Positions 7,830-26,650 of a stretch of DNA of 64,000 bases are shown one piece after another. Numbering within the stretch: position 1 is the stretch's first letter; each line of letters opens with the position of its first letter. The notes beneath the pieces are model-generated. The model had not been told where the DNA came from. It made no database searches and was given only the letters and a program-made list of their open reading frames with translations. A program made the position numbers and the translations under genes. The stretch is taken from sequence record OM632671.1; one strand, given 5' to 3'. Source of the DNA: Escherichia phage BEU50.

Positions 7830-8465
7830 ATGAAAACTACTCCTATTACTATCGCTATTGACGCAATCATAAAACAAGCTTCTTCTTTGGCCGCTATGGC
7901 CAAAGTAATTAGTCAAAACCCTGCTCGTTATAATGCTATTCTAGAAACTCTTCGACGCCCGGGACTTAGTAATTATGAAAGCCGAGTAATTATTACAGGT
8001 GTTGGTAAGAATGCTAATATTGCAACTAAAGCTTCTGAGACATTTGCTTCACTCGGTATCCCGAGTATGTACTTGAACACTGGGCATTATTCTCACGGTG
8101 ATGCAGGATTCATTGCGCCTAATGATGTGTTGATTCATATTAGTCGTTCTGGTAAAACTGAAGAAATGATAGGCGTGGCTAAGCATCTTAAAATGATTCG
8201 ACCGAACGTCAAACAGATTCTGTTGCATTGTAACCCAGACATTCCACAAGAAAATGAAGCCCTTTTTGATTACTCTTTCTGTACAGGCATCGCAGTAGAG
8301 GTTGATGAGAATTCTCTGGCTCCGACTATGTCCACTACATTGTTGTTAGCGCTTATCGATACGTTTGCTATCAACCTTTCGTCTGAACGTGGATTTACCT
8401 CTAATGACTTCCTTAAGTTCCACCCTGGTGGTGCACTAGGTGCCATGTTACGAGGCGAACAATGA
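7830..8465 (+). CDS. SIS-domain sugar-phosphate isomerase, KdsD/GutQ-type arabinose-5-phosphate isomerase catalytic domain without CBS domains
   Basis: Motifs GVGKNANIATKASETFASLG, HGDAG, ISRSGKT, LAPTMSTT, HPGGALG align with the KdsD SIS domain (ATFASTG, HGDLG, ISNSGES, LAPTSSTT, HPGGALG) from memory. Confidence 0.7.
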   Translation: MKTTPITIAIDAIIKQASSLAAMAKVISQNPARYNAILETLRRPGLSNYESRVIITGVGKNANIATKASETFASLGIPSMYLNTGHYSHGDAGFIAPNDVLIHISRSGKTEEMIGVAKHLKMIRPNVKQILLHCNPDIPQENEALFDYSFCTGIAVEVDENSLAPTMSTTLLLALIDTFAINLSSERGFTSNDFLKFHPGGALGAMLRGEQ

Positions 8466-8605
8466 AAGCAATAACAATAGGACTTTTACTATTGATGCTT
8501 GTCATGACTATCTACTGGAGCTTAACGGCTCCAGTAATGATTCCAACACTTGTAATTGGATGGATTATGATTGGACTACAAGCAAAGTATGAATGCTTTA
8601 ACTAG
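8462..8605 (+). CDS. Small hydrophobic membrane protein (47 aa), start overlaps the isomerase stop (ATGA)
   Basis: MKAITIGLLLLMLVMTIYWSLTAPVMIPTLVIGWIMIGLQAKYECFN; below the ORF-track size cutoff. Confidence 0.3.
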   Translation: MKAITIGLLLLMLVMTIYWSLTAPVMIPTLVIGWIMIGLQAKYECFN

Positions 8606-8618
8606 AATAGTGTACAAT
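8594..8618 (+). promoter_or_regulatory. Possible MotA-dependent middle promoter (MotA box TGCTTTA, 12 nt, TACAAT)
   Basis: aTGCTTTAactagaatagtgTACAAT about 30 nt upstream of the 8647 start. Confidence 0.35.
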
Positions 8619-8646
8619 ACTCCTACTTACCAATGAGGACCACAAC

Positions 8647-10332
8647 ATGAAAAAAGCTGTTATTCTTGGTGCTGGACTGGCAACTCGTTTATATCCAATT
8701 ACTCACCATATTCCTAAGGTGCTTGTTAACTATAAACAAGACACTATTCTGAGCAATTTGTATACAATTTATTCTGACCTAGGCGCAGATGAAATTATTG
8801 TAGTAGTTCATTCAAAATTTGCTGAAACTGTTCGAGCTTATTGTGAGCAAGAAGGGTTCAATGTGACTATTCGTACAGTTGATGAAGCGTATGGTTCTGC
8901 TTATGCTCTTGCTAAATTACACAAAGATTTAGACGGCCATAATGTAATTGTTAACTGGTGTGATATTATTCCGGATTTTGGTTCATGGTCTTGGAATGTT
9001 AACGCAATCTATGTTAAGGGTGACGAATGTCGATATAATTTCGACGGTGAAAATATCACTAACGTAGGTTCAACAGGTGGTAATGTTGTAGGAATTTATC
9101 AGTTCAAAGACTGGGAATTCTATATGGGTTCTACTGATGAGGAAATTCATGAATACTGCAAAGGACGTGATTTCGTAGAATTCCTTTACGGCAGCGCATT
9201 CAATAAATCAGAGCTTATGAATCTAATTGATTTAGGTGATATGCCTAAACTTGAAAAAGCTCATGAAGTTCGTGAACTTAATCGTAGTTTTAATGCAGTT
9301 GAAATTGGTGAAGAAACTGTAACTAAATTCGCATTAACCGAACAGGGCCGAGCTCTTCAGAAAGATGAGATTTCGTGGTATTTGAAAGTGAAATCAGATT
9401 CAGTCCCTCAGTTAGTTTCTGTTAATGAAAATAACTTTGAAATGGAACGCATTAAAGGTAAGCCGGCATTTGAATATATTAAATCCAAATCAAGTCTTGC
9501 TCGTCCACAAATTGTTGATGCAATTTTAGATGCACTGAAATTCAGCACAGACACTTATTTTGTAAGTCCTGAAACTGTTCGTCGTGATTTCACTAAAGAA
9601 TTCTATACGAAAGTTATTGATCGTTGTGAAAGCATTCAACCATTGATTGATTCATTTGGTAAAATCACACATGTGAACTACACTAAGATTGGACGTCTGA
9701 AGCCAATGCTGAAACAAGCTTTAGAACACCTTATTCGTTATCATAACCGTTCTCAGGGACAGTACTCTGTTATTCATGGTGACCCGAACTTCAGTAATAC
9801 TATGATTACTGATAACGGCGAAGTCAAATTTATCGACCCTCGTGGATATTTTGGCGAAACCAAGATTTACGGGCCAAAATTGTACGATGAAGCTAAAGTG
9901 CTTTACGCTGTTTCAGGTTATGATGAATTCAATGCTAATCCGACCTGGGGACAGTTTACTATTGATGAAACAACTTGTAATGTGACTATTAACATCAATC
10001 CATTAGTTTACAAATATGGAAAGATGAGTTCGTTTAACGAGTATCATCATTTGGCAGTGGCAATTATCTGGATTGCATTAGGTGGTTATTTCAAGAATAA
10101 TCCACTTAAAGCGGTAGCCGCATATTATAAAGGTATGGAACTTCTGACTAAGCAATTACGTAACATGGGCCGTGTACTTCAGGACGGCTCTATTAGTTAT
10201 GACGTAGCAGAACCTGTAACGGCTACTCTGATTACAAAAAATCCTGGTAAATGGGTACTAACTGATAAAGAAACTGGTGTTTCCTATCGTCCAATCGGTG
10301 GCGATATCACTCATCAATGGGAACGAATTTGA
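8647..10332 (+). CDS. Bifunctional sugar-1-phosphate nucleotidyltransferase (N-terminal) / APH-fold anomeric sugar kinase (C-terminal)
   Basis: N-terminal MKKAVILGAGLATRLYPIT (RmlA/GlmU-type G-x-G-T-R-L motif); C-terminal HGDPNFSNTMITDNGEVKFIDPRGYFG (APH/choline-kinase Brenner motif HGDxxxxN and DxxG). Confidence 0.65.
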   Translation: MKKAVILGAGLATRLYPITHHIPKVLVNYKQDTILSNLYTIYSDLGADEIIVVVHSKFAETVRAYCEQEGFNVTIRTVDEAYGSAYALAKLHKDLDGHNVIVNWCDIIPDFGSWSWNVNAIYVKGDECRYNFDGENITNVGSTGGNVVGIYQFKDWEFYMGSTDEEIHEYCKGRDFVEFLYGSAFNKSELMNLIDLGDMPKLEKAHEVRELNRSFNAVEIGEETVTKFALTEQGRALQKDEISWYLKVKSDSVPQLVSVNENNFEMERIKGKPAFEYIKSKSSLARPQIVDAILDALKFSTDTYFVSPETVRRDFTKEFYTKVIDRCESIQPLIDSFGKITHVNYTKIGRLKPMLKQALEHLIRYHNRSQGQYSVIHGDPNFSNTMITDNGEVKFIDPRGYFGETKIYGPKLYDEAKVLYAVSGYDEFNANPTWGQFTIDETTCNVTININPLVYKYGKMSSFNEYHHLAVAIIWIALGGYFKNNPLKAVAAYYKGMELLTKQLRNMGRVLQDGSISYDVAEPVTATLITKNPGKWVLTDKETGVSYRPIGGDITHQWERI

Positions 10333-11078
10333 TACATTATCTCTACAAAACTACTAATCTTATAAACGGTAAAGTTTATTTAGGAATGCACTCGGCTGAA
10401 GAAGCCGAGCCTTTAGATTTATATAAAGGTTCTGGTAAATTATATAAAAAGGCTGAAAGGAAATACGGTAAGGAAAATTTTCTTAAAGAAATCATTTCCT
10501 ACCATAGCTCAAGAGAAGAATTAAAAATAGCTGAAAAGGCTCTAATAACATTAGACATAGTTAAAGACCCGAATTATTACAATCTTAAAACTGGTGGCGA
10601 AGGTGGTTCTGACGGGTTATCCCAAAGGTCCAAGGATAAAATTTCTAAGGCAAATAAAGGACGTTTAGTTGGTGATAAAAACCCAAGATGGGGTAAAACT
10701 TTGTCAGCTGAATCTATAGCTAGGGGTAAAGAAAAGCACAGGAGGTATGGTAAACCTGCATTACATGGTCTAAAGATTAATGTAGATGGCAAATATTATG
10801 AATCCTGTCGGGAAGCGGCTAAAGATTTGGGTATATCTTCTGCCACGATTCAAAAGAGAGTAAAATCGCCTAAATATCTTAATTATCGATATCAGGACGA
10901 AAGCAAAAATGCTCACAAGTCTCAAAAATTTGTTAAAATAAACGAAAATTACTATGAATCTCTTAGGATAGCTGAAAAGAAAACGGGTATTCCTAGAAAG
11001 CGTATAGCTGATAATATTAAAAATTCTATTGAAGGATATTGCTATGAAACCATTACATCTTTGCGTGGACGTCGATGA
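10317..11078 (+). CDS. GIY-YIG homing endonuclease (seg-like) with NUMOD-type DNA-binding repeats
   Basis: N-terminal YLYKTTNLINGKVYLGMH (GIY-YIG core); repeated KISKANKGR / GK-x-x-S-x-E motifs; overlaps neighbours at both ends as typical of free-standing HEGs. Confidence 0.65.
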   Translation: MGTNLIHYLYKTTNLINGKVYLGMHSAEEAEPLDLYKGSGKLYKKAERKYGKENFLKEIISYHSSREELKIAEKALITLDIVKDPNYYNLKTGGEGGSDGLSQRSKDKISKANKGRLVGDKNPRWGKTLSAESIARGKEKHRRYGKPALHGLKINVDGKYYESCREAAKDLGISSATIQKRVKSPKYLNYRYQDESKNAHKSQKFVKINENYYESLRIAEKKTGIPRKRIADNIKNSIEGYCYETITSLRGRR

Positions 11079-11418
11079 TTGTATAACAGAGTGGAATAAC
11101 AATCGTGATTACGTGAACTTCAAACCAGACGTCGAAATGGTGTCTGCCATTAATGCCCTGTATGAGGCAGGGCATACCATAACGCTTTACACTGCTCGCG
11201 GTATGAAGTCAGTAGGTCCTGGTCGTATAGCAATTGACATTCTCCCAAGTCTGATTCAGAACTTGGCAAACATTGGCTTGAAGTACCATAATTTGCTAAC
11301 ACATAAACCAGTATATGATTGGATTATCGACGACAAAGCTATGCGTCCTGACGAATTCAAAGCTCTTATGAATAAAGGCGAATTCGAAACATTTAAATCA
11401 TATAAACCGAATCTATAA
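11044..11418 (+). CDS. HAD-superfamily phosphatase (small, KdsC/GmhB-like)
   Basis: Motif I LCVDVDDCIT (DxDx[T/V]); about 125 aa; ATG at 11044 preferred over 11029. Confidence 0.55.
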   Translation: MKPLHLCVDVDDCITEWNNNRDYVNFKPDVEMVSAINALYEAGHTITLYTARGMKSVGPGRIAIDILPSLIQNLANIGLKYHNLLTHKPVYDWIIDDKAMRPDEFKALMNKGEFETFKSYKPNL

Positions 11419-11464
11419 TAATTTAAGTAAGACCTGCAAAAACCATCGCATCAATTAACGTGAG

Positions 11465-12637
11465 ATGCAAAAAAAAATGAATACTTTTAAAATCGGAACG
11501 AATTTTGATTTAGCTCTTCTTGATAAAATCGTAGAGCTCAATAAAACTTATCCTAATAGCTTGATAAACGAAGTATACGGCTCTACAAGAGAAATGGCTT
11601 TTGTAGCAGCCAGACCTGATTTTAGGCTTCCTGACGTTGACAAAAAGATGTTAGAAGATTACGTTAAACGTTGTAACGAATTAGGTATTTGCTTTAACTA
11701 TACACTCAACACGATAAATCCTGGTTCAAAAAGAGAACTAGTTGAGTGGAAGAAGAAAGCTATTCAGGATTATGTTCAGTATCTTTGGTCAATAGGCGTA
11801 TGGCGTATTACTATCGCTAACCCTGTTGTTATGGAAATTGTTCGTGAAGTCAATAAAGACATTGAGATTGAAGTTTCAACAATTCTACATGTCGATGCTG
11901 TAACTCAAATCAAATACTTGCATGACCAATATAATATCAAAAAGGTCTGCTGTGGAATTCATAAGAACCGTTCAGTTTCTTTCCTGAAGCGTGCAGCAGA
12001 GTTTTGCAATAAGAACAATATAATATTTGAAGTTCTTGTAAATGAGTTCTGTTCTAATGCTGGTAAAGGGTATACAACACATTGTAGCTATCGTGACTCT
12101 TGCTATATTTTCCATAGTACTGATGTTACAGCTGATGATGCTAAATCCTTAAACGGATATCCAATGCAGCACTGTATTAAAGCTCGTGATACAGACCCAT
12201 TTAACTGGTTGAGAACTCGTTTTGTTCGTCCTCAAGATTTGAAACTTTATAATGATATTGGTATCACTCAATTCAAAGTTTCAGGACGTACAGGTAGCAC
12301 AGACTACATTTTGAAAGTTCTTGAAGCATACGCTTCTGAAAAGTTTGAAGGTAATTTGTTAGAACTGTGGAAGCCTTTAGAGACTATTTTCACTCTTGAA
12401 AACGAAACTGAGTTTTCACATACGGTAAATATTGAAACCTCTTTGTTAGATGGCTTTTTAGAAAAAAGGTGGTTCAGACATCCAGATTTCGATTGTGCTA
12501 ATGAAATCTGCGGGACGACGTGTACATATTGTGAAAGATATTATAAACGTCAGTTATCTAAAAATGGGTTATCAGAAAATTCTATATCTATTATTGATAT
12601 AACTAACTCTGACGACGCTTTGAGGTACCCGGAATGA
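11465..12637 (+). CDS. Cys-rich protein with U32-family-like features (function unknown)
   Basis: EVLVNEFCSNAGKGYTTHCSYRDSC and FKVSGRTGSTDY resemble U32 family signatures (E-x-F...C...C and K-I-E-G-R-x-x-S-x-x-Y); C-terminal CANEICGTTCTYCERYY cysteine cluster; weak, from memory. Confidence 0.3.
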   Translation: MQKKMNTFKIGTNFDLALLDKIVELNKTYPNSLINEVYGSTREMAFVAARPDFRLPDVDKKMLEDYVKRCNELGICFNYTLNTINPGSKRELVEWKKKAIQDYVQYLWSIGVWRITIANPVVMEIVREVNKDIEIEVSTILHVDAVTQIKYLHDQYNIKKVCCGIHKNRSVSFLKRAAEFCNKNNIIFEVLVNEFCSNAGKGYTTHCSYRDSCYIFHSTDVTADDAKSLNGYPMQHCIKARDTDPFNWLRTRFVRPQDLKLYNDIGITQFKVSGRTGSTDYILKVLEAYASEKFEGNLLELWKPLETIFTLENETEFSHTVNIETSLLDGFLEKRWFRHPDFDCANEICGTTCTYCERYYKRQLSKNGLSENSISIIDITNSDDALRYPE

Positions 12638-12873
12638 TTTCTAGAAAAACTTTTAATTATAAACTTAATGAAGAGATTTTGACTATGAAACTGAACACCA
12701 ACGAACAAATTCTTAAAAAGGCCCTTATGGGCCTGTTTGAAACCAAAGCGGCTAAAGTGATTAAAGAACCTATTCAATTGGAATACTATGCTGATGCATT
12801 TCTTCATAGTGTTCTTGGAAGTATCGATGCTGAAGCTTTACGTTATATCAACATTGCCAAGAAATTCAAATAA
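12634..12873 (+). CDS. Hypothetical protein (79 aa)
   Basis: ORF with ATG overlapping upstream stop. Confidence 0.3.
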   Translation: MISRKTFNYKLNEEILTMKLNTNEQILKKALMGLFETKAAKVIKEPIQLEYYADAFLHSVLGSIDAEALRYINIAKKFK

Positions 12874-16695: not shown

Positions 16696-18138
16696 GTGGT
16701 AGAAATTATTTTGTCTCATCTAGTATACGACCAGGCTTATTTTTCTAAGGTCTGGCCTTATATGGATTCTGAGTATTTTGAGCGTGGACCGGCAAAAAAC
16801 GTCTTTAAAATTATAAAGAGCCACGTTAACGAATATAATGCAATGCCATCTATCAATGCATTAAAGGTGGCTTTAGATAACAGTTCTTTAACTGAAGCCG
16901 AATATAAAGGAACTTCAGACCTAATTGAAAAATTGGCTGATACTCCTGAAGACCACGAATGGTTGGTTAAAGAAACTGAGAAATATGTCCAGCAAAAAGC
17001 GATGTATAATGCTACATCCAAAATCATTGAGATTCAGTCTAATGCTGAACTACCTCCAGAACAACGTAACAAGAAAATGCCTGATGTAGGAGCTATTCCT
17101 GATATTATGCGTCAAGCACTTTCAATTTCGTTTGATAGTTATGTTGGACATGACTGGATGGAAGACTACGAAGCACGCTGGCTTTCTTATCTAAATAAAG
17201 CACGTAAGGTCCCGTTCAAATTAAACATTCTGAATAAAATCACTAAAGGTGGTGCTGAAACAGGTACACTAAACGTTTTAATGGCTGGTGTTAACGTTGG
17301 TAAATCTTTAGGCCTTTGTTCACTTGCTGCAGATTATCTTCAAACAGGTCATAATGTTCTTTATATTTCCATGGAAATGGCTGAAGAAGTTTGCGCTAAG
17401 CGTATAGATGCAAACATGCTTGACGTATCACTTGATGATATCGATGATGGTAACGTATCTTATGCTGAATATAAAGCCAAGATGGAAAAATGGCGTTCAA
17501 AATCCACATTAGGACGTTTAGTAGTTAAACAGTATCCTACTGGTGGAGCTAATGCTAATACATTTCGTGCATTGCTTAATGAGTTAAAACTTAAGAAGAA
17601 CTTTGTGCCATCTGTAATCATGGTTGATTACTTAGGTATTTGTGGGTCTTGTCGTATCAGAGTTTACACTGAAAATAGCTACACATTAGTTAAAGCTATC
17701 GCAGAAGAACTTCGTGCATTAGCAGTAGAATCTGAAACAGTTCTATGGACTGCAGCTCAAGTAGGACGTGCAGCATGGGATGCTTCGGATATGAACATGA
17801 GTGATATTGCAGAATCAGCAGGTTTACCAGCAACGGCAGATTTCATGTTGGCCGTAATTGAAACCGAAGAACTTGCACAAGCTGAACAACAACTTATCAA
17901 ACAAATCAAATCACGATATGGTGATAAGAATAAGTGGAATAAATTCCTGATGGGTGTACGTAAAGGCAACCAGAAATGGATTGAGATTGAGCAAGAAGGC
18001 ATGAACACACCTAACACAGTAAATGAAAACGCAGGTGCTCAGATGCGTCAGGCAGAGGTGAATCGTACGGAACGCGTAGGTAAAGCCAAAGCAACACGGG
18101 CTGACCTAGATAGCTTAGCCAATGAGTTAAAATTTTAA
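16696..18138 (+). CDS. 41: Replicative DnaB-like helicase gp41 (GTG start)
   Basis: Walker A GVNVGKS, DnaB-family core; RBS AAGGAG 6 nt upstream of GTG. Confidence 0.9.
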   Translation: MVEIILSHLVYDQAYFSKVWPYMDSEYFERGPAKNVFKIIKSHVNEYNAMPSINALKVALDNSSLTEAEYKGTSDLIEKLADTPEDHEWLVKETEKYVQQKAMYNATSKIIEIQSNAELPPEQRNKKMPDVGAIPDIMRQALSISFDSYVGHDWMEDYEARWLSYLNKARKVPFKLNILNKITKGGAETGTLNVLMAGVNVGKSLGLCSLAADYLQTGHNVLYISMEMAEEVCAKRIDANMLDVSLDDIDDGNVSYAEYKAKMEKWRSKSTLGRLVVKQYPTGGANANTFRALLNELKLKKNFVPSVIMVDYLGICGSCRIRVYTENSYTLVKAIAEELRALAVESETVLWTAAQVGRAAWDASDMNMSDIAESAGLPATADFMLAVIETEELAQAEQQLIKQIKSRYGDKNKWNKFLMGVRKGNQKWIEIEQEGMNTPNTVNENAGAQMRQAEVNRTERVGKAKATRADLDSLANELKF

Positions 18139-18144
18139 TAAAAA

Positions 18145-18163
18145 GGAGACTTCGGTCTCCTTT
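18145..18163 (+). terminator. Stem-loop GGAGAC-UUCG-GUCUCC followed by UUU after gene 41
   Basis: 6-bp GC-rich stem, UUCG tetraloop, short U run. Confidence 0.5.
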
Positions 18164-18167
18164 CGGG

Positions 18168-18197
18168 GTTTACATCTTCCTCTAGGCATGATATGAT
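18168..18197 (+). promoter_or_regulatory. Early promoter (GTTTACA, 18 nt, TATGAT)
   Basis: Matches the recurrent GTTTAC-N18-TAnnnT pattern seen before many early genes here. Confidence 0.4.
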
Positions 18198-18226
18198 GTA
18201 CTTACACCAACCAAGAGGAAAACATT

Positions 18227-18601
18227 ATGAATATGTCTCAAGCAATTTTTACTGCAATCACCGAAAACACAACTGTTGAAGTAGTTTCTCCACTGGCAAC
18301 CTACGTTATTCTTGCTCCTAAAACTATTGTATCTCGTATGGAAAACATGGGCAAACGTATCGTACAAATAGTTGGAGCCGGAAATCAAAAACTTGATTAT
18401 CTACGAACCATCAAAGCTTATGAACATTTCCAACTCGAAAAAGGTTCTCCTATCCAGGTAGAACTCGTAAATGGTGATATCGTTCGAGCAATGTTCCATC
18501 ATTTCTATGCATTGAATGACCCATCTAAAGCGGTTCGTTTAATTGCATACGATGCAAACCAAAACGAAATCAACGCAGATATATCTAAATTACGTTTTTA
18601 A
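18227..18601 (+). CDS. Hypothetical protein (124 aa)
   Basis: ORF with RBS AAGAGGA before ATG. Confidence 0.4.
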   Translation: MNMSQAIFTAITENTTVEVVSPLATYVILAPKTIVSRMENMGKRIVQIVGAGNQKLDYLRTIKAYEHFQLEKGSPIQVELVNGDIVRAMFHHFYALNDPSKAVRLIAYDANQNEINADISKLRF

Positions 18602-18656
18602 GTTTACTTCTCCAGTAGTTGTGTTATTATAGATCTATCAACTACTGGAGAACAAA

Positions 18657-18974
18657 ATGAAAACCATCGATTGTAAAGCAGAATTTAAGATTTTTTATCA
18701 CGGTTCAAGTAGTTCAGCTAACATCGAAAACATGCTTTGTCCTCCTGAGGAAACAGGAGTTCTGTCTGAAACTGGACGTAAGAAAAACTTGGATCGTGTA
18801 TTCTTTACTGAAGATATCGGTTTAGCAAAGATTTATGCAGGACGAGCAGCACGCTCTTATGGAGGTGAACCACGTCTCTACCGAGTAATTTCTCCGGTAG
18901 ATGTAGTTCAAATGAATGATACTAAAGGCGCTACAGTTTATCACGCTGAATGGGCATTTTGCGAGGAAATATGA
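18657..18974 (+). CDS. Hypothetical protein (105 aa)
   Basis: ORF with ATG; no confident family. Confidence 0.4.
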   Translation: MKTIDCKAEFKIFYHGSSSSANIENMLCPPEETGVLSETGRKKNLDRVFFTEDIGLAKIYAGRAARSYGGEPRLYRVISPVDVVQMNDTKGATVYHAEWAFCEEI

Positions 18975-19172
18975 GCAAATTAACTAAAGTTACTTTTATC
19001 GGTTGGTTTAAAAGCGGTGAGATGTTCACTAAAGATATGATGTTATCAGGTGATCGCGAAGAAATCGAGTGGGTTACGGTACAACTTGCTGAAGTGAACA
19101 AAGCATTAGTTAAAGCATTTGTTAATGACGAGAAAGTTTTCGAAGCAGATTTTCGATAATTTTAAAATAACT

Positions 19173-19202
19173 GTTTACAAGCCCCACATACTGTGTTACT
19201 AT
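19173..19202 (+). promoter_or_regulatory. Early promoter (GTTTAC, 18 nt, TACTAT)
   Basis: Consensus-like elements about 30 nt upstream of the 19231 start. Confidence 0.4.
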
Positions 19203-19230
19203 CTTTCTATCAACTACAGAGGAAATTGAA

Positions 19231-19599
19231 ATGAAAAAATTAATCGCTTTAGCAATGGTATTCGGATTAACCGGATGTGGTGCCCATGGCTTTATCCCTA
19301 ATAACGTTGGCCAACTGATTTACAATCCGAATGTTAAACAGTACGACCAACCTAAAGTTGAAGTGGAAGACCCGGTTACTGTAGGTAATCGAATGATTCA
19401 AGCTGATGCCCATGCTCAACGTTATCGTGACTCTGATACTGTAGCATTGTCAAAAGAACAACGCGTTAAAGAACATTGCTTACAGGCTACTGAAATCGCA
19501 TTCATTCGCTATGTTGAAACAACTGGTAAAGAGCCTACCCAGAAACAAATAGCGAATAACTACGTCCAGTGTATTGAACGTTTAAACAAATTTAATTAA
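19231..19599 (+). CDS. Putative lipoprotein (122 aa)
   Basis: Signal peptide with lipobox MKKLIALAMVFGLTGCG. Confidence 0.45.
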   Translation: MKKLIALAMVFGLTGCGAHGFIPNNVGQLIYNPNVKQYDQPKVEVEDPVTVGNRMIQADAHAQRYRDSDTVALSKEQRVKEHCLQATEIAFIRYVETTGKEPTQKQIANNYVQCIERLNKFN

Positions 19600-19602
19600 T
19601 TG

Positions 19603-19632
19603 GTTTACACCAAAGTTAAAACAAGATACTAT
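19603..19632 (+). promoter_or_regulatory. Early promoter (GTTTAC, 18 nt, TACTAT)
   Basis: Upstream of the 19661 start. Confidence 0.4.
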
Positions 19633-19660
19633 AAACATAACAAATCAAGAGGAAATTAAC

Positions 19661-19909
19661 ATGGAATTATTCGTAGCTAGTTCAGTAGCAGTTTTAATCG
19701 CAGGTATTGGTTCAATCATCATTTACATGTTGCCTTGGGTAATCGCACTTATTCGTGGCACAAAAGGCACAACAGCAATCTTCTTTGTATCTTTACTCTT
19801 TAACTGGACGATGGTTGGTTGGATTGGAACTTTAATTTGGTCTATCGTTGCCGAAAAGAAATCTGCTCAGCAGCCTCAACAAGTAATTATTATTCGCGAA
19901 AAAGAATAA
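19661..19909 (+). CDS. Superinfection immunity (Imm)-family small membrane protein
   Basis: Two TM segments and motif YMLPWVIALIRG...NWTMVGWIGTLIWSIV resembling the Imm family pattern (LPxxIA..R ... GWT.IGW..A.IW). Confidence 0.45.
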   Translation: MELFVASSVAVLIAGIGSIIIYMLPWVIALIRGTKGTTAIFFVSLLFNWTMVGWIGTLIWSIVAEKKSAQQPQQVIIIREKE

Positions 19910-19913
19910 ACTT

Positions 19914-19943
19914 GTTTACATTATAGATGGACTATAGTATAGT
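19914..19943 (+). promoter_or_regulatory. Early promoter (GTTTACA, 18 nt, TATAGT)
   Basis: Upstream of the 19973 start. Confidence 0.4.
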
Positions 19944-19972
19944 AGTCCTATCAAATCAACTAAGGAGTTAAA

Positions 19973-20266
19973 ATGAAAAAGTTATCATTGGCAGCAATCT
20001 TACTTGCAGTATCATGTGCACCGGCTCCAGTTACGGCAGGTTATGATAAAGACCTCTGTGAGTGGTCAATGACTGCAAATCAAGAAGATGTTGAACAACA
20101 AATCTTCTCTGATATCATGAACATCACTAAACGAGACCGTCCTAATATGGTTAATAAAGTTGTTGAACAACTTAAGTCTGGCGGTATCATGCAGTACAAC
20201 TATGTTTTGTATTGTGACCCTAATTTCGATAACAAAGATATCGTAACCGAAATCACAGGTGAATAA
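19973..20266 (+). CDS. Periplasmic Sp (spackle)-like protein, 97 aa with signal peptide
   Basis: Signal peptide MKKLSLAAILLAVSCAPAPVTA; size and GYDKDLCEW...YNYVLYCD content fit what I recall of T4 Sp. Confidence 0.45.
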   Translation: MKKLSLAAILLAVSCAPAPVTAGYDKDLCEWSMTANQEDVEQQIFSDIMNITKRDRPNMVNKVVEQLKSGGIMQYNYVLYCDPNFDNKDIVTEITGE

Positions 20267-20918
20267 TATGATTTATTATATGCACAAAAATGCGCCATTT
20301 AAATATGGTAAATTTCCTAATGCACAATGTTATAATATAACGCCGAATGAAAATAATAACGGATACCATCTCGGTGTAATTTTTGTAATTGTTAAAGATA
20401 ACGAAATCGTTGCCTGGGCAGATTTTAAAGGTACAACATATGACGTTAATCCTGTGCCTTTCACATATTACAATATAATGGATTTGGCATATGATTATAA
20501 TTGGTTTAATCATGACACGTTGGCTCATATTGAAGGTGTAGGATTTGACATCTCTTATTCTAGTTATTCATTATGTCCTATGAGCCGAGCTCACGGTAAA
20601 GATGCATCATATCTTTCAATTCGGAAACGTGTAAACTTCAAACGTAGTACAGAGTATGTTGGTGGACTCTTTGTTAAAGATAATAAAATAACCCGTATTA
20701 GTTATCCTCTAAGTGTAGGCCAAAAAGATGTTGATGTTGATTTGGACTTAACTGAAAATAACATTAATCGTATTGCTTCTGTATATTTTGATATCGATGA
20801 AAAAATTGTAGTGTGTGGATATGAATTACCACCTGAAGAAAAGGCTGAAGCAATTGAAGTCGAATTAGAAATTTCTGTTGATGACCAAATATTTAATGCA
20901 TTTATGAATCGAGGTTAA
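20259..20918 (+). CDS. Hypothetical protein (about 215 aa)
   Basis: ORF; true start may be an internal ATG shortly after 20259. Confidence 0.4.
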   Translation: MNNMIYYMHKNAPFKYGKFPNAQCYNITPNENNNGYHLGVIFVIVKDNEIVAWADFKGTTYDVNPVPFTYYNIMDLAYDYNWFNHDTLAHIEGVGFDISYSSYSLCPMSRAHGKDASYLSIRKRVNFKRSTEYVGGLFVKDNKITRISYPLSVGQKDVDVDLDLTENNINRIASVYFDIDEKIVVCGYELPPEEKAEAIEVELEISVDDQIFNAFMNRG

Positions 20919-20919
20919 A

Positions 20920-21117
20920 ATGACTACTGCAATTTGCACTGGTTCTAAAATTAGTGTTTTTACAAGTTTTGAAGATTATGAAGTTGTTTCAAAACACCAA
21001 TGCCATATTAGCGTAAAAGCTAATGACGGTGTAATTTGGAATATTCCACAGTATGAAGGCACTACATATGAAGTCACAGATATAAATGGTGACAAAGCGA
21101 TCTTTGTAATTGATTAA
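20920..21117 (+). CDS. Hypothetical protein (65 aa)
   Basis: ORF starting 2 nt after the previous stop. Confidence 0.3.
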   Translation: MTTAICTGSKISVFTSFEDYEVVSKHQCHISVKANDGVIWNIPQYEGTTYEVTDINGDKAIFVID

Positions 21118-21604
21118 ATATACTCAGGAGGTACCTATGGGTATTATTAACACTGCAATAGATTCTGTTTATGCATATAAGTTTATTCGACTAATGCAAA
21201 AACCTTTTACCGAATGGAAAGCATACGAAGCCAAAATCATCGATGAACGTGGAAGTGTTCTTAAACGTCCTTCTACTCCCGAAGAAAAAGCGGCGTATAC
21301 ACCTTTTCATGCTTCAGTTCGTTCAATGAAGCGAATGATGAGCACTGTTCCGGGTCTTAATGGAATGGCCTCAATGATGTCTGCCTGGAGTGCTGTAGCT
21401 TCACGCTATAACATTACGGAAGAACAACAGAAAGAAATATTTAAAGAACTCCCTTTATTTGAGGATATGGTTGCTGGTGATTCAGGCGGCAGTCCTCAAG
21501 CTATTGCATCAGGAACAACTACAGGTGCAGTCGTAAATAAAGGTCCAGACCAAATTCCTTCCAAGAAAAGAAAGCGAATTAAAGTAAATATTAATAAGTT
21601 GTGA
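21110..21604 (+). CDS. Hypothetical protein (about 155-164 aa)
   Basis: ORF; RBS AGGAGG precedes the internal ATG at 21137. Confidence 0.35.
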   Translation: MIKYTQEVPMGIINTAIDSVYAYKFIRLMQKPFTEWKAYEAKIIDERGSVLKRPSTPEEKAAYTPFHASVRSMKRMMSTVPGLNGMASMMSAWSAVASRYNITEEQQKEIFKELPLFEDMVAGDSGGSPQAIASGTTTGAVVNKGPDQIPSKKRKRIKVNINKL

Positions 21605-21645
21605 TATGATGGCCTTAAATTAATTTAAGGCCTCTGGAGAATACT

Positions 21646-22668
21646 ATGGCTGAATGGATAGATAATGAATTTGCTTATCGTGCGTTTTCTCACCTCCCTC
21701 GTTTTAGACAAATCAATAATTCAAGCACATTTAAATTAACGTTTCGTTGTCCAGTTTGTGGCGACTCTCAGACAGATGCAATGAAAGCTCGCGGTTGGTA
21801 TTATGGCGGTACTCCTGGTAATGTACATTGCTATAACTGTCAATACCACAATACAATTTCCGGATACTTAAAAGAGTATGATGAAGAGCTTTATCGCGAA
21901 TATCTAATGGAAGTTCGTAAAGAAAAAGCTAGAATGGAACCAAAGATTGAAAAGGTTCCTGAAGCTAAGCCAGAGCCAGAGAAAAAGACTATAAATTCTT
22001 TGCCGTCTTGTTCTCGTCTGGACAAGTTGCCTGAAGAGCATCCTATTGTGAAATATGTTAAGTCTCGGTGTATTCCTAAAGAATCATGGAACAGATTATG
22101 GTTCACATTAGAATGGCCCAAATTGGTCAACAAGATTCAACCTGGTACGTATAAGAAAGAGATTCCAGAACCACGTTTAGTGATTCCTATTTTTAATAAA
22201 GATGGGAAGGCCGAGTCATTCCAAGGACGTGCACTTCGTAAAGATGCTCCTCAGAAATATATCACTATTAAAGCGTTTGAGTCTGCAACAAAAATTTATG
22301 GTGTTGAACGTGTTAAGGAAGGAGACGTCTGGGTAATGGAAGGCCCTATTGATAGTTTATTCATACCCAATGCAATCGCTATTACAGGCGGCTCAATAGA
22401 TTTAGATGTGGTACCATTTAAAGAACGTCGGGTATGGGTAATGGATAATGAACCTAGGCATCCGGATACTATAGCTCGCATGAAGCGATTAGTTGATGCA
22501 GGCGAACGTGTCATGTTCTGGGATCGAGCTCCATGGAGATCAAAGGATGTGAATGATATGGTAATGAAAGAAAATGCAACACCACAAGAAATTTTAGAAT
22601 ATATGAAACAGAATATTTCAAGTGGGTTGCATGCTAAAATGAGATTATCTCGTTATTCGAAGATTTAA
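21646..22668 (+). CDS. 61: DNA primase gp61
   Basis: Zinc ribbon FRCPVCGDSQTDAMKARGWYYGG...CYNCQYH, TOPRIM-like EGPIDSL, matches T4 gp61 from memory. Confidence 0.9.
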   Translation: MAEWIDNEFAYRAFSHLPRFRQINNSSTFKLTFRCPVCGDSQTDAMKARGWYYGGTPGNVHCYNCQYHNTISGYLKEYDEELYREYLMEVRKEKARMEPKIEKVPEAKPEPEKKTINSLPSCSRLDKLPEEHPIVKYVKSRCIPKESWNRLWFTLEWPKLVNKIQPGTYKKEIPEPRLVIPIFNKDGKAESFQGRALRKDAPQKYITIKAFESATKIYGVERVKEGDVWVMEGPIDSLFIPNAIAITGGSIDLDVVPFKERRVWVMDNEPRHPDTIARMKRLVDAGERVMFWDRAPWRSKDVNDMVMKENATPQEILEYMKQNISSGLHAKMRLSRYSKI

Positions 22669-25966: not shown

Positions 25967-26575
25967 ATGTTTATGCCGTATAACGAGTGTGAAATTGAAG
26001 AAATGGTTCGTCGTGCTCAAAACCCCGAATATCAAGATGTATTGCAGTACGAAATTGATAGTCAATTCAACGATAATGAACAAAGCATCCTTTGGCAGTG
26101 TATGGAAAACAAGCCAGACTGTATTCAACAGGAGTTAAGTTCAATCGTTCGTAGAAATTGGACGTCTTCTGTTCCTGAGACAATGTATCGTGGAATCTCT
26201 AAGAAAACTATGGCCACACTTGATGATAAAGGCATTGGTAGTATTATTAAATTTGACAGAGTAATGAGCTTCAGCCCAGTGTTCGGTGTAGCACGTAACT
26301 TTGCTTCGTATAATTTTTACGGAACATTTAATATGTTCTGCATCAAAGATGCACCATTTGCTTTCAACTTCCGTGAACATATGCTTAACATGATTCTGGC
26401 CGCGCCATCTTGCGAGTTCAATGGAGCTTTCCCTGAAGCGACAAGACGGTCTAATGCTAGACTTATATCTGACGAATGTGAATTTATGCTCCCTATAGGG
26501 ACTACACTGCGTGTAGATTCTATTATTCAAGATGGACGTTATACAATCTGGAATCTATCTATTGTCAGTTACTGA
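25967..26575 (+). CDS. ADP-ribosyltransferase-like protein (ModB/ModA family paralogue 2)
   Basis: Paralogue of 25328..25909 (ILWxC, SxVP..xYRG, FxF/STS-like, ECE motif). Confidence 0.5.
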   Translation: MFMPYNECEIEEMVRRAQNPEYQDVLQYEIDSQFNDNEQSILWQCMENKPDCIQQELSSIVRRNWTSSVPETMYRGISKKTMATLDDKGIGSIIKFDRVMSFSPVFGVARNFASYNFYGTFNMFCIKDAPFAFNFREHMLNMILAAPSCEFNGAFPEATRRSNARLISDECEFMLPIGTTLRVDSIIQDGRYTIWNLSIVSY

Positions 26576-26650
26576 CTGAATTGGAATAACCGGATGGAAC
26601 TCAGAACCATTATAACACATAAAAAATTAAAGCATTTTACGAAAAAAGAG

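Follow-up and report, generated by a model that had tools for sequence, protein, structure and literature searches.

Here we report that three consecutive small genes of Escherichia phage BEU50 (accession number OM632671.1), located between the helicase and primase genes, are, judged by their sequences, RB69-type orthologues of imm.1, imm and spackle (sp) of phage T4. The analysis covered one stretch of 64,000 nucleotides of this phage, referred to below as the window. We favour, with a probability of roughly 0.9, the reading that these orthologues stand behind early-promoter motifs, that the products of sp and imm act as Sp and Imm do in T4, and that the genes came to be adjacent through relocation of the imm.1-imm pair. 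The arrangement is already known; it is found throughout the genus of RB69-type phages and has been annotated since the RB69 genome of 2003, which makes the side-by-side order a correct but ordinary finding. The result adds little new beyond confirming the presence of the classical T-even exclusion genes in RB69-type phages, and it illustrates that these genes can be recognised in the raw sequence by a reader who uses no tools.

Locus and close relatives

The reading frames were recovered exactly at positions 19231-19599 (imm.1; 122 aa), 19661-19909 (imm; 82 aa) and 19973-20266 (sp; 97 aa), all on the + strand, flanked by the genes of the gp41 helicase (16696-18138) and the gp61 primase (21646-22668), as the initial annotation had placed them. 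A strong Shine-Dalgarno sequence, either GAGGAA or AAGGAG, precedes the ATG of each gene by 6-7 nt, and each gene occurs in a single copy in the window. The left neighbour is dmd (18971-19159, + strand), which encodes an antitoxin against RnlA/LsoA (PF17587, 3.9e-20), and the right neighbour is gene 61.2, or adfA (anti-DarT factor A; 20268-20918, + strand; PF23813, 7.6e-120), whose product is 66% identical to T4 gp61.2.

Sequence comparison places the window among the RB69-like T-even phages of the genus Mosigvirus. At the DNA level, the region 18100-21700 shares 99.5% identity with Escherichia phage NRG-P0074 and 98.6% with RB69, and at least 80% of it is covered in one piece by 152 phage records. 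The order imm.1-imm-sp is common to about 150 sequenced Mosigvirus records; those encoding Imm.1, Imm and Sp at more than 95% identity number 154, 153 (plus one) and 154, respectively. The three proteins are conserved in 650-1175 phage records. In RB69 itself (AY303349 / NC_004928, annotated 2003), imm.1, imm and sp are likewise consecutive, with the same gene set, order and orientation as in the window and with identical intergenic promoter regions. The only difference is that the window has lost gene 61.4, situated between dmd and imm.1 in RB69, through a deletion of about 206 nt.

Predicted functions of Sp and Imm

All functions given here for Imm.1, Imm and Sp of the window are transferred by orthology and are worded accordingly. 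The case is strongest for the third gene, sp (gene 61.3), which had been described as encoding a 97-aa Sp-like protein. Its 97-aa precursor matches the Pfam family T4_Spackle (PF25676) from end to end (145 bits, cut-off 27; 1.1e-42; profile positions 1-96 of 96) as well as phrog_1586 (2.9e-42), and shares 66% identity with T4 Sp. The expected signal peptide features are present, namely MKK, a hydrophobic core and a cleavage site between VTA and G23 that leaves a predicted mature chain of 75 aa; Pro19 and Ala22 are invariant in an alignment across four genera. A Ser14-Cys15 pair is conserved in Sp as well and might act as a lipobox.

The structure of T4 Spackle has its mature start at Gly23, a disulfide between Cys29 and Cys81, a contact segment Ser32-Met33-Thr34-Ala35 and a C-terminal helix (PMC7677548). 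In the alignment, the window protein keeps both cysteines, the segment Ser32-Met33-Thr34-Ala35 and the C-terminal helix. It thus shares with T4 Spackle (gp61.3; PDB 6X6O for the free form, and a complex with the gp5 lysozyme domain) the length of 97 aa, the signal peptide, the Cys29-Cys81 pair, Ser32-Ala35 and the helix, and its gene has the same position between 41 and 61; about one third of the residues differ, and for the window protein we infer the binding to gp5. In T4, mature periplasmic Sp binds the lysozyme domain of gp5 of incoming phages and inhibits it allosterically, and thereby prevents both penetration of the cell wall and lysis from without (PMC7677548). Because gene 5 lies outside the window, gp5 of RB69 was examined in place of the phage's own Sp partner. 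In it, the seven basic positions in contact with Sp (R181, R182, R187, K189, R312, K321, R326) are all conserved, as is G322.

With orthology and with contact residues conserved on both partners, the window Sp is predicted to be an inhibitor of the gp5 tail lysozyme. It would be exported, cleaved after Ala22 and folded into a disulfide-bonded helical bundle in the periplasm, where it would bind and inhibit the gp5 lysozyme domain at the tail tip of T-even-type phages that arrive later. Phages inhibited in this manner would neither penetrate the cell wall nor cause lysis from without.

The second gene, imm, encodes a protein of 82 aa that matches the Pfam family Imm_superinfect (PF14373; 55 bits, cut-off 27.9; 7.4e-15) and phrog_1039 ('immunity to superinfection'). 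Its identity with T4 Imm is 63% over the full length (82 of 83 aa), and its C-terminal QVIIIREKE is conserved in an alignment across four genera. By Kyte-Doolittle hydropathy, the protein has two hydrophobic segments, at about 1-34 and 40-59, with a basic loop (R32/K35) between them, in agreement with the initial description of an Imm-like protein with two transmembrane segments. T4 Imm is a plasma-membrane protein that keeps the DNA of secondary phages from entering, an activity known as a phenotype (PMC6832632). If this phenotype is transferred from T4 by orthology, the window Imm would be held in the inner membrane by its two hydrophobic segments and would keep the DNA of a superinfecting T-even phage from crossing it. 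One paper on SieA of phage P22 contained nothing on Imm.

RB69 has been reported to lack lysis inhibition (PMC6832632). Sp and Imm therefore probably serve exclusion and protection of the envelope here rather than stabilisation of lysis inhibition, and what T4 Sp and Imm contribute to the stability of lysis inhibition may not apply to this phage.

Early-promoter motifs

The three genes are each preceded by a T4-type early-promoter motif on the + strand, located at 19173-19202 for imm.1 (GTTTACA-N17-TACTAT, with TG before the -10 element), at 19603-19632 for imm (GTTTACA-N17-TACTAT; without a counterpart in T4 or KpV477) and at 19914-19943 for sp (GTTTACA-N17-TATAGT, overlapped by the 6-bp inverted repeat GGACTA/TAGTCC). 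These motif matches lie 29-31 nt upstream of the start codons. In the whole window there are 13 copies of the pattern GTTTAC-N18-TANNNT, every one of them on the + strand, where chance would give 0.84; none of 100 shuffled sequences reached 13. At the level of motifs, the claim that every gene has its own early promoter is therefore borne out. A motif of this type before each gene makes transcription by the host RNA polymerase within minutes of infection probable. No terminator-like site was found between imm.1, imm and sp, so read-through transcripts are likely as well. The leader box TATCAACTA was considered as a further enriched element and rejected (3 copies against 0.85 expected; 6 of 100 shuffles reached 3).

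T4-like phages contain mobile regulatory cassettes termed promoter-early stem-loop elements (PeSLs; Arbiol 2010, PMC2839356; Comeau 2014, PMC4122927). Small early genes are shuffled by recombination between PeSLs, for which the T4/PST consensus is TTTACW-N17-TAYWAT (PMC4122927; PMC2839356). In the window, this consensus is matched at 19174 and 19604, and the sp promoter, with TATAGT, is one position off. Clear stem-loops are confined to the sp promoter (GGACTA/TAGTCC) and the elements 18145-18197 (stem 18145-18163) and 18603-18657. The locus resembles PeSL cassettes in that small early genes stand behind promoters and occupy a plastic stretch of the genome between core genes, where genes are gained, lost and displaced; it differs from them in that the stem-loop is clear at only part of the elements and that the relocation event itself is one that we infer.

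Gene order and proposed relocation of imm.1-imm

The gene order in T4 is 43, imm.1, imm, 42, b-gt, segA, uvsX, 40, 41, dmd, 61.4, sp, 61.2, 61.1, 61. As the initial annotation had pointed out, imm (26373-26624) and sp (19758-20051) are at different loci in T4, 6.3 kb apart and with 42, b-gt, segA, uvsX, 40, 41, dmd and 61.4 between them, whereas they are adjacent in the window. Seven Tequatrovirus records that were recovered in more than one search have their imm.1/imm and sp matches 5.3-7.5 kb apart. The sp gene is found in the 41-61 interval of T4, Dhakavirus (dhaeg) and Jiaodavirus (Metamorpho), and imm is found beside gene 43 in T4 and just downstream of 43 in Gaprivervirus VR7, Jiaodavirus KpV477 and Dhakavirus IME341. 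In the window, the interval between 43 and 42 (7831-12873) is occupied by genes for an arabinose-5-phosphate isomerase, a phosphoheptose isomerase and other proteins instead of imm.1-imm; this interval, which now carries genes of sugar metabolism in these phages, is the region linked to the arabinosyl-hydroxymethylcytosine of RB69. A search for a second copy or a remnant near gene 43 of the window gave only insignificant matches (E of at least 0.057).

Since the four other genera have sp between 41 and 61, or imm beside 43, the Mosigvirus order is best read as the result of a move of imm.1-imm by about 6 kb to sp. The simplest reading is that only this pair moved and that sp kept its usual place between 41 and 61. 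The direction of the move, with Mosigvirus as the derived state, follows from parsimony over five genera rather than from a rooted phylogeny. In the Mosigvirus lineage, the pair would have left its ancestral site beside gene 43 together with its promoter and settled next to sp, and recombination between PeSLs flanking small early genes would be the likely route.

Among the promoter regions compared pairwise, that of imm.1 is closest to the imm.1 promoter of T4 (z=8.2), which makes it probable that the promoter moved along with the module. The promoter region of imm has its best pairwise match in the sp promoter of T4 (z=7.1). A call of recombination junctions was rejected, since all early-promoter regions resemble one another (z 4-12) and the junctions are for this reason not definable.

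Apart from the location, the pair resembles its T4 counterpart, which lies between 43 and 42. The order imm.1-then-imm and the orientation are the same, and Imm.1 has a lipobox in both phages; imm.1 lies directly upstream of imm in the window, RB69 and T4. The differences are that the T4 pair is 6 kb away from the place it has in the window, and that imm follows the lipoprotein gene after only 10-11 nt and without a promoter in T4 (11 nt) and KpV477, as opposed to a 61-nt spacer with a full promoter motif in the window. The end of T4 imm is also where a small hydrophobic ORF begins, probably 42.1 as judged from VR7 although the T4 record omits it; this ORF did not accompany the pair. The locus is a clear example of promoter-flanked early genes that are reshuffled between the core replication genes of T4-like phages.

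The predicted lipoprotein Imm.1

The first gene, imm.1, had been predicted to encode a lipoprotein, and this is supported by a signal peptide and a strict lipobox (LTGC) with the cysteine at position 16 and glycine as the +2 residue; T4 Imm.1, to which the protein is 32% identical (E=5e-18), has LAGC. The 122-aa product matches DUF5481 (PF17578; 37.3 bits, cut-off 27) and phrog_1754 (5.1e-29), and its counterpart in RB69 is annotated as imm.1. The lipobox cysteine is present in five of the six aligned Imm.1 relatives and is replaced by phenylalanine in the sixth (P0002). By the usual sorting rule of E. coli, a lipoprotein whose +2 residue is not Asp is directed to the outer membrane. The glycine at this position makes outer-membrane sorting probable, with the protein facing the periplasm; Imm.1 would accordingly be exported, lipidated at Cys16 and probably anchored in the outer membrane on its periplasmic side.

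The family is small. A word-indexed homologue search with Imm.1 found only 3 proteins, an exhaustive profile search of 1.84 billion cluster representatives found 8 relatives at E<=0.001, and tblastn matches were limited to Mosigvirus and Tequatrovirus, so that a deep alignment is impossible. An AlphaFold2 model built from 3 sequences had a mean pLDDT of 59.8, with confidence confined to a C-terminal helical hairpin (residues 75-98 and 104-120; pLDDT about 87). The two helices carry Cys83 and Cys114, which are invariant in the family, and in the model this hairpin fits a disulfide-bonded periplasmic domain. Comparison of the family profile with the sequences of PDB chains gave nothing at E<=10. 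No published work on the function of Imm.1 or DUF5481 was found.

Beyond the preferred reading, Imm.1 might be a functional partner of Imm and add a third envelope component to T-even exclusion or to protection of the envelope, a proposal that we regard as possible but distinctly less probable than its opposite. It draws on the fact that imm has a lipoprotein gene as its direct neighbour in each of the five genera compared. This gene precedes imm in T4, Mosigvirus and Jiaodavirus (kpv477_044, lipobox LTGC) and follows it in Gaprivervirus (VR7ORF049c, LSGC) and Dhakavirus (an ORF of IME341, LSGC). This constant adjacency hints at a functional link, as do the short distance of 10-11 nt in T4 and KpV477, where the absence of a promoter between the lipoprotein gene and imm makes co-transcription probable, and the joint relocation of the pair in Mosigvirus.

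The lipoproteins adjacent to imm also have in common a motif G-D/E-V-V-x-A-S-E-V-G-K just after the lipidated cysteine (hhalign, 97%), but the match spans only the first 31 columns, including the signal peptide, and most of the motif is lost in the Imm.1 of the window. Because hhalign was significant only over the signal peptide and the short motif, the lipoproteins next to imm in the other genera were not accepted as full-length homologues; no homology could be demonstrated for the C-terminal parts. Further points against a partnership are the relative P0002, which lacks the lipobox cysteine, and the lack of published work on Imm.1 function. Cloned T4 imm alone was reportedly sufficient to confer immunity in the hands of Lu and Henning in 1989, which also speaks against it.

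The more specific idea, that the lipoprotein accompanying imm is an unrecognised third component of exclusion or envelope protection that faces the periplasm and works with Imm, is put forward tentatively and with slightly less confidence still. If true, RB69-type phages would encode three envelope layers side by side, namely an outer-membrane lipoprotein, the periplasmic Sp and the inner-membrane Imm. The linkage of imm with a lipoprotein gene and their joint relocation are the only lead toward anything new at this locus, and RB69-type phages have imm.1, imm and sp within 1 kb.

Significance of the adjacency

The initial annotation had regarded the three genes as a consolidated exclusion cassette. 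This description holds for the gene order; as a demonstrated functional unit it does not stand, since the lipoprotein has no known role in exclusion. It is unlikely, in our estimate, that the adjacency was selected, with Imm.1, Imm and Sp forming a co-adapted unit that is more readily transferred together or expressed in a coordinated way when its genes are clustered. Such a unit would be in keeping with the targeting of all three products to the envelope and with the overlapping phenotypes of imm and sp mutants in T4 (PMC6832632). The order is also fixed in about 150 Mosigvirus records, but fixation within one closely related genus (more than 95% identity) reflects shared descent, not repeated selection. 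Every gene has a promoter motif of its own, imm having gained one that is absent from T4, and three separate promoters argue against obligatory co-regulation. In four other genera, imm and sp are 5-7 kb apart, and the neighbours dmd and adfA are unrelated cytoplasmic counter-defence genes. Given the separate promoters, these unrelated neighbours and the four genera that do well with the genes apart, nothing shows a functional meaning of the imm.1-imm-sp adjacency, and relocation of the imm.1-imm pair remains the preferred explanation of it.

It is considerably less probable that Imm.1 is a receptor-masking lipoprotein of the kind of T5 Llp or Cor, which block the receptor, and that it prevents the adsorption of competing phages. 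Imm.1 resembles these proteins in being a small, early phage lipoprotein that is probably located in the outer membrane (+2 residue not Asp), and T5 Llp, phi80/N15 Cor and P22 SieA are likewise phage lipoproteins or membrane proteins that guard the infected or lysogenic cell against phage entry. However, no sequence or fold relationship of these proteins to those of the window was detected. DUF5481 is the sole Pfam match of Imm.1, there is no match among PDB sequences, and a Foldseek search of the PDB with the low-confidence model gave no fold match at E<0.001 and nothing below E=2.6. Moreover, T-even exclusion acts after adsorption, and T4-infected cells still adsorb secondary phages (PMC6832632).

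The view that these reading frames are open by chance and that the promoter motifs are AT-rich noise, which has nothing but the small size of the ORFs in its favour, is practically untenable and is refuted by the strong family matches (Pfam, PHROG), by conservation in 650-1175 phage records and by an approximately 15-fold excess of the promoter motif, with all copies on the coding strand.

The exclusion genes imm.1 (19231-19599), imm (19661-19909) and sp (19973-20266) are flanked on one side by dmd (18971-19159), encoding a cytoplasmic antitoxin against RnlA/LsoA, and on the other by 61.2 (20268-20918), which is adfA (anti-DarT factor A; cytoplasmic; PF23813, E = 7.6e-120). Both flanking genes serve counter-defence, and the interval between genes 41 and 61, exclusion genes included, thus constitutes an early-expressed island of host-interaction genes. 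The RB69ORF040c-type ORF of 105 aa (18657-18974; phrog_2110), which overlaps the start of dmd by 4 nt, had no Pfam match and is conserved beside dmd in Dhakavirus also (VOG2440). A single ORF of 155-164 aa (21110-21604) matched phrog_2086 over its full length, whereas the 2003 annotation of RB69 divides this region into RB69ORF032c and 61.1; the discrepancy stems either from a frameshift or from the way the region was annotated.

Gene 61.4 is absent between dmd and imm.1 (window 19140-19172 versus 2541-2776 of the RB69 locus, L001), whereas RB69 has kept it at this position and T4 has kept it between dmd and sp. The deletion comprises approximately 206 nt, is flanked by the short similar sequences GAAGC-GATTTC / AACGCAAATTTCGC, has left the final codons of 61.4 (TTTTAAAATAA) and has altered the C-terminus of Dmd (…EADFR). 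It is common to records that match this region in one piece (e.g. the Mosigvirus phage NRG-P0074, mobillu and JK45), and 61.4 is retained in those matching in two pieces (e.g. RB69, mar005P1 and moha).

The 61-nt spacer 5' of imm (19600-19660) carries an early-promoter motif of its own, whereas the lipoprotein gene and imm are separated by a promoterless gap of 10-11 nt in T4 (L003, 11126-11136) and KpV477 (L008, 2455-2464). The -10 and leader part of the imm promoter was closest to the T4 sp promoter, with a similarity score (z = 7.1) that is not discriminating. Two elements resembling the promoter-early stem-loop (PeSL) are located upstream. The first, 3' of gene 41 (18145-18197), consists of the hairpin GGAGAC-TTCG-GTCTCC followed directly by GTTTACA-N17-TATGAT; in the second, 5' of the 105-aa ORF (18603-18657), the promoter is bracketed by a 19-nt inverted repeat with 89% complementarity. 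The imm.1 leader (19192-19224) repeats 33 nt of the leader of this ORF (18620-18652) with 79% identity.

In T4, imm.1-imm is located between genes 43 and 42, whereas the corresponding interval of the window (7831-12873) contains other genes, annotated in NRG-P0074 as arabinose-5-phosphate isomerase, homing endonuclease, phosphoheptose isomerase, peptidase and a 561-aa 'dCMP deaminase'. We take this interval to be, probably, the RB69-type arabinosyl-hmC modification region.

In all three of Gaprivervirus, Dhakavirus and Jiaodavirus, the gene adjoining imm is unannotated ('hypothetical') and encodes a lipoprotein, as judged by its lipobox: VR7ORF049c (L007, 2892-3395; LSGC), an IME341 gene (L011, 2152-2652; LSGC) and kpv477_044 (L008, 2008-2454; LTGC). 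Directly C-terminal to the lipidated cysteine, they share the motif G-D-x-V-x-A-S/D-E/S-V/I-G-K/Q, which is present also in T4 Imm.1 and in the metagenomic relatives P0005 and P0008. A further metagenomic relative, P0002 (47% identical to Imm.1), has LAGF where the lipobox cysteine is expected, followed by AHA|S, and is probably a soluble periplasmic version; lipidation is therefore not universal in the Imm.1 family.

A lipobox-like motif lies also within the signal peptide of Sp (20006-20017; residues 12-15), reading AVSC in the window; its counterparts in T4, Dhakavirus and Jiaodavirus are LASC, VASC and VSSC, respectively. Ser14-Cys15 is invariant across the four genera, and nearby positions of the signal peptide are variable. 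Some Sp may be lipidated, although conservation extends to the cleavage site for signal peptidase I (Pro19, Ala22|Gly23); the form used in published work on T4 Spackle is Gly23-Glu97 (PMC7677548).
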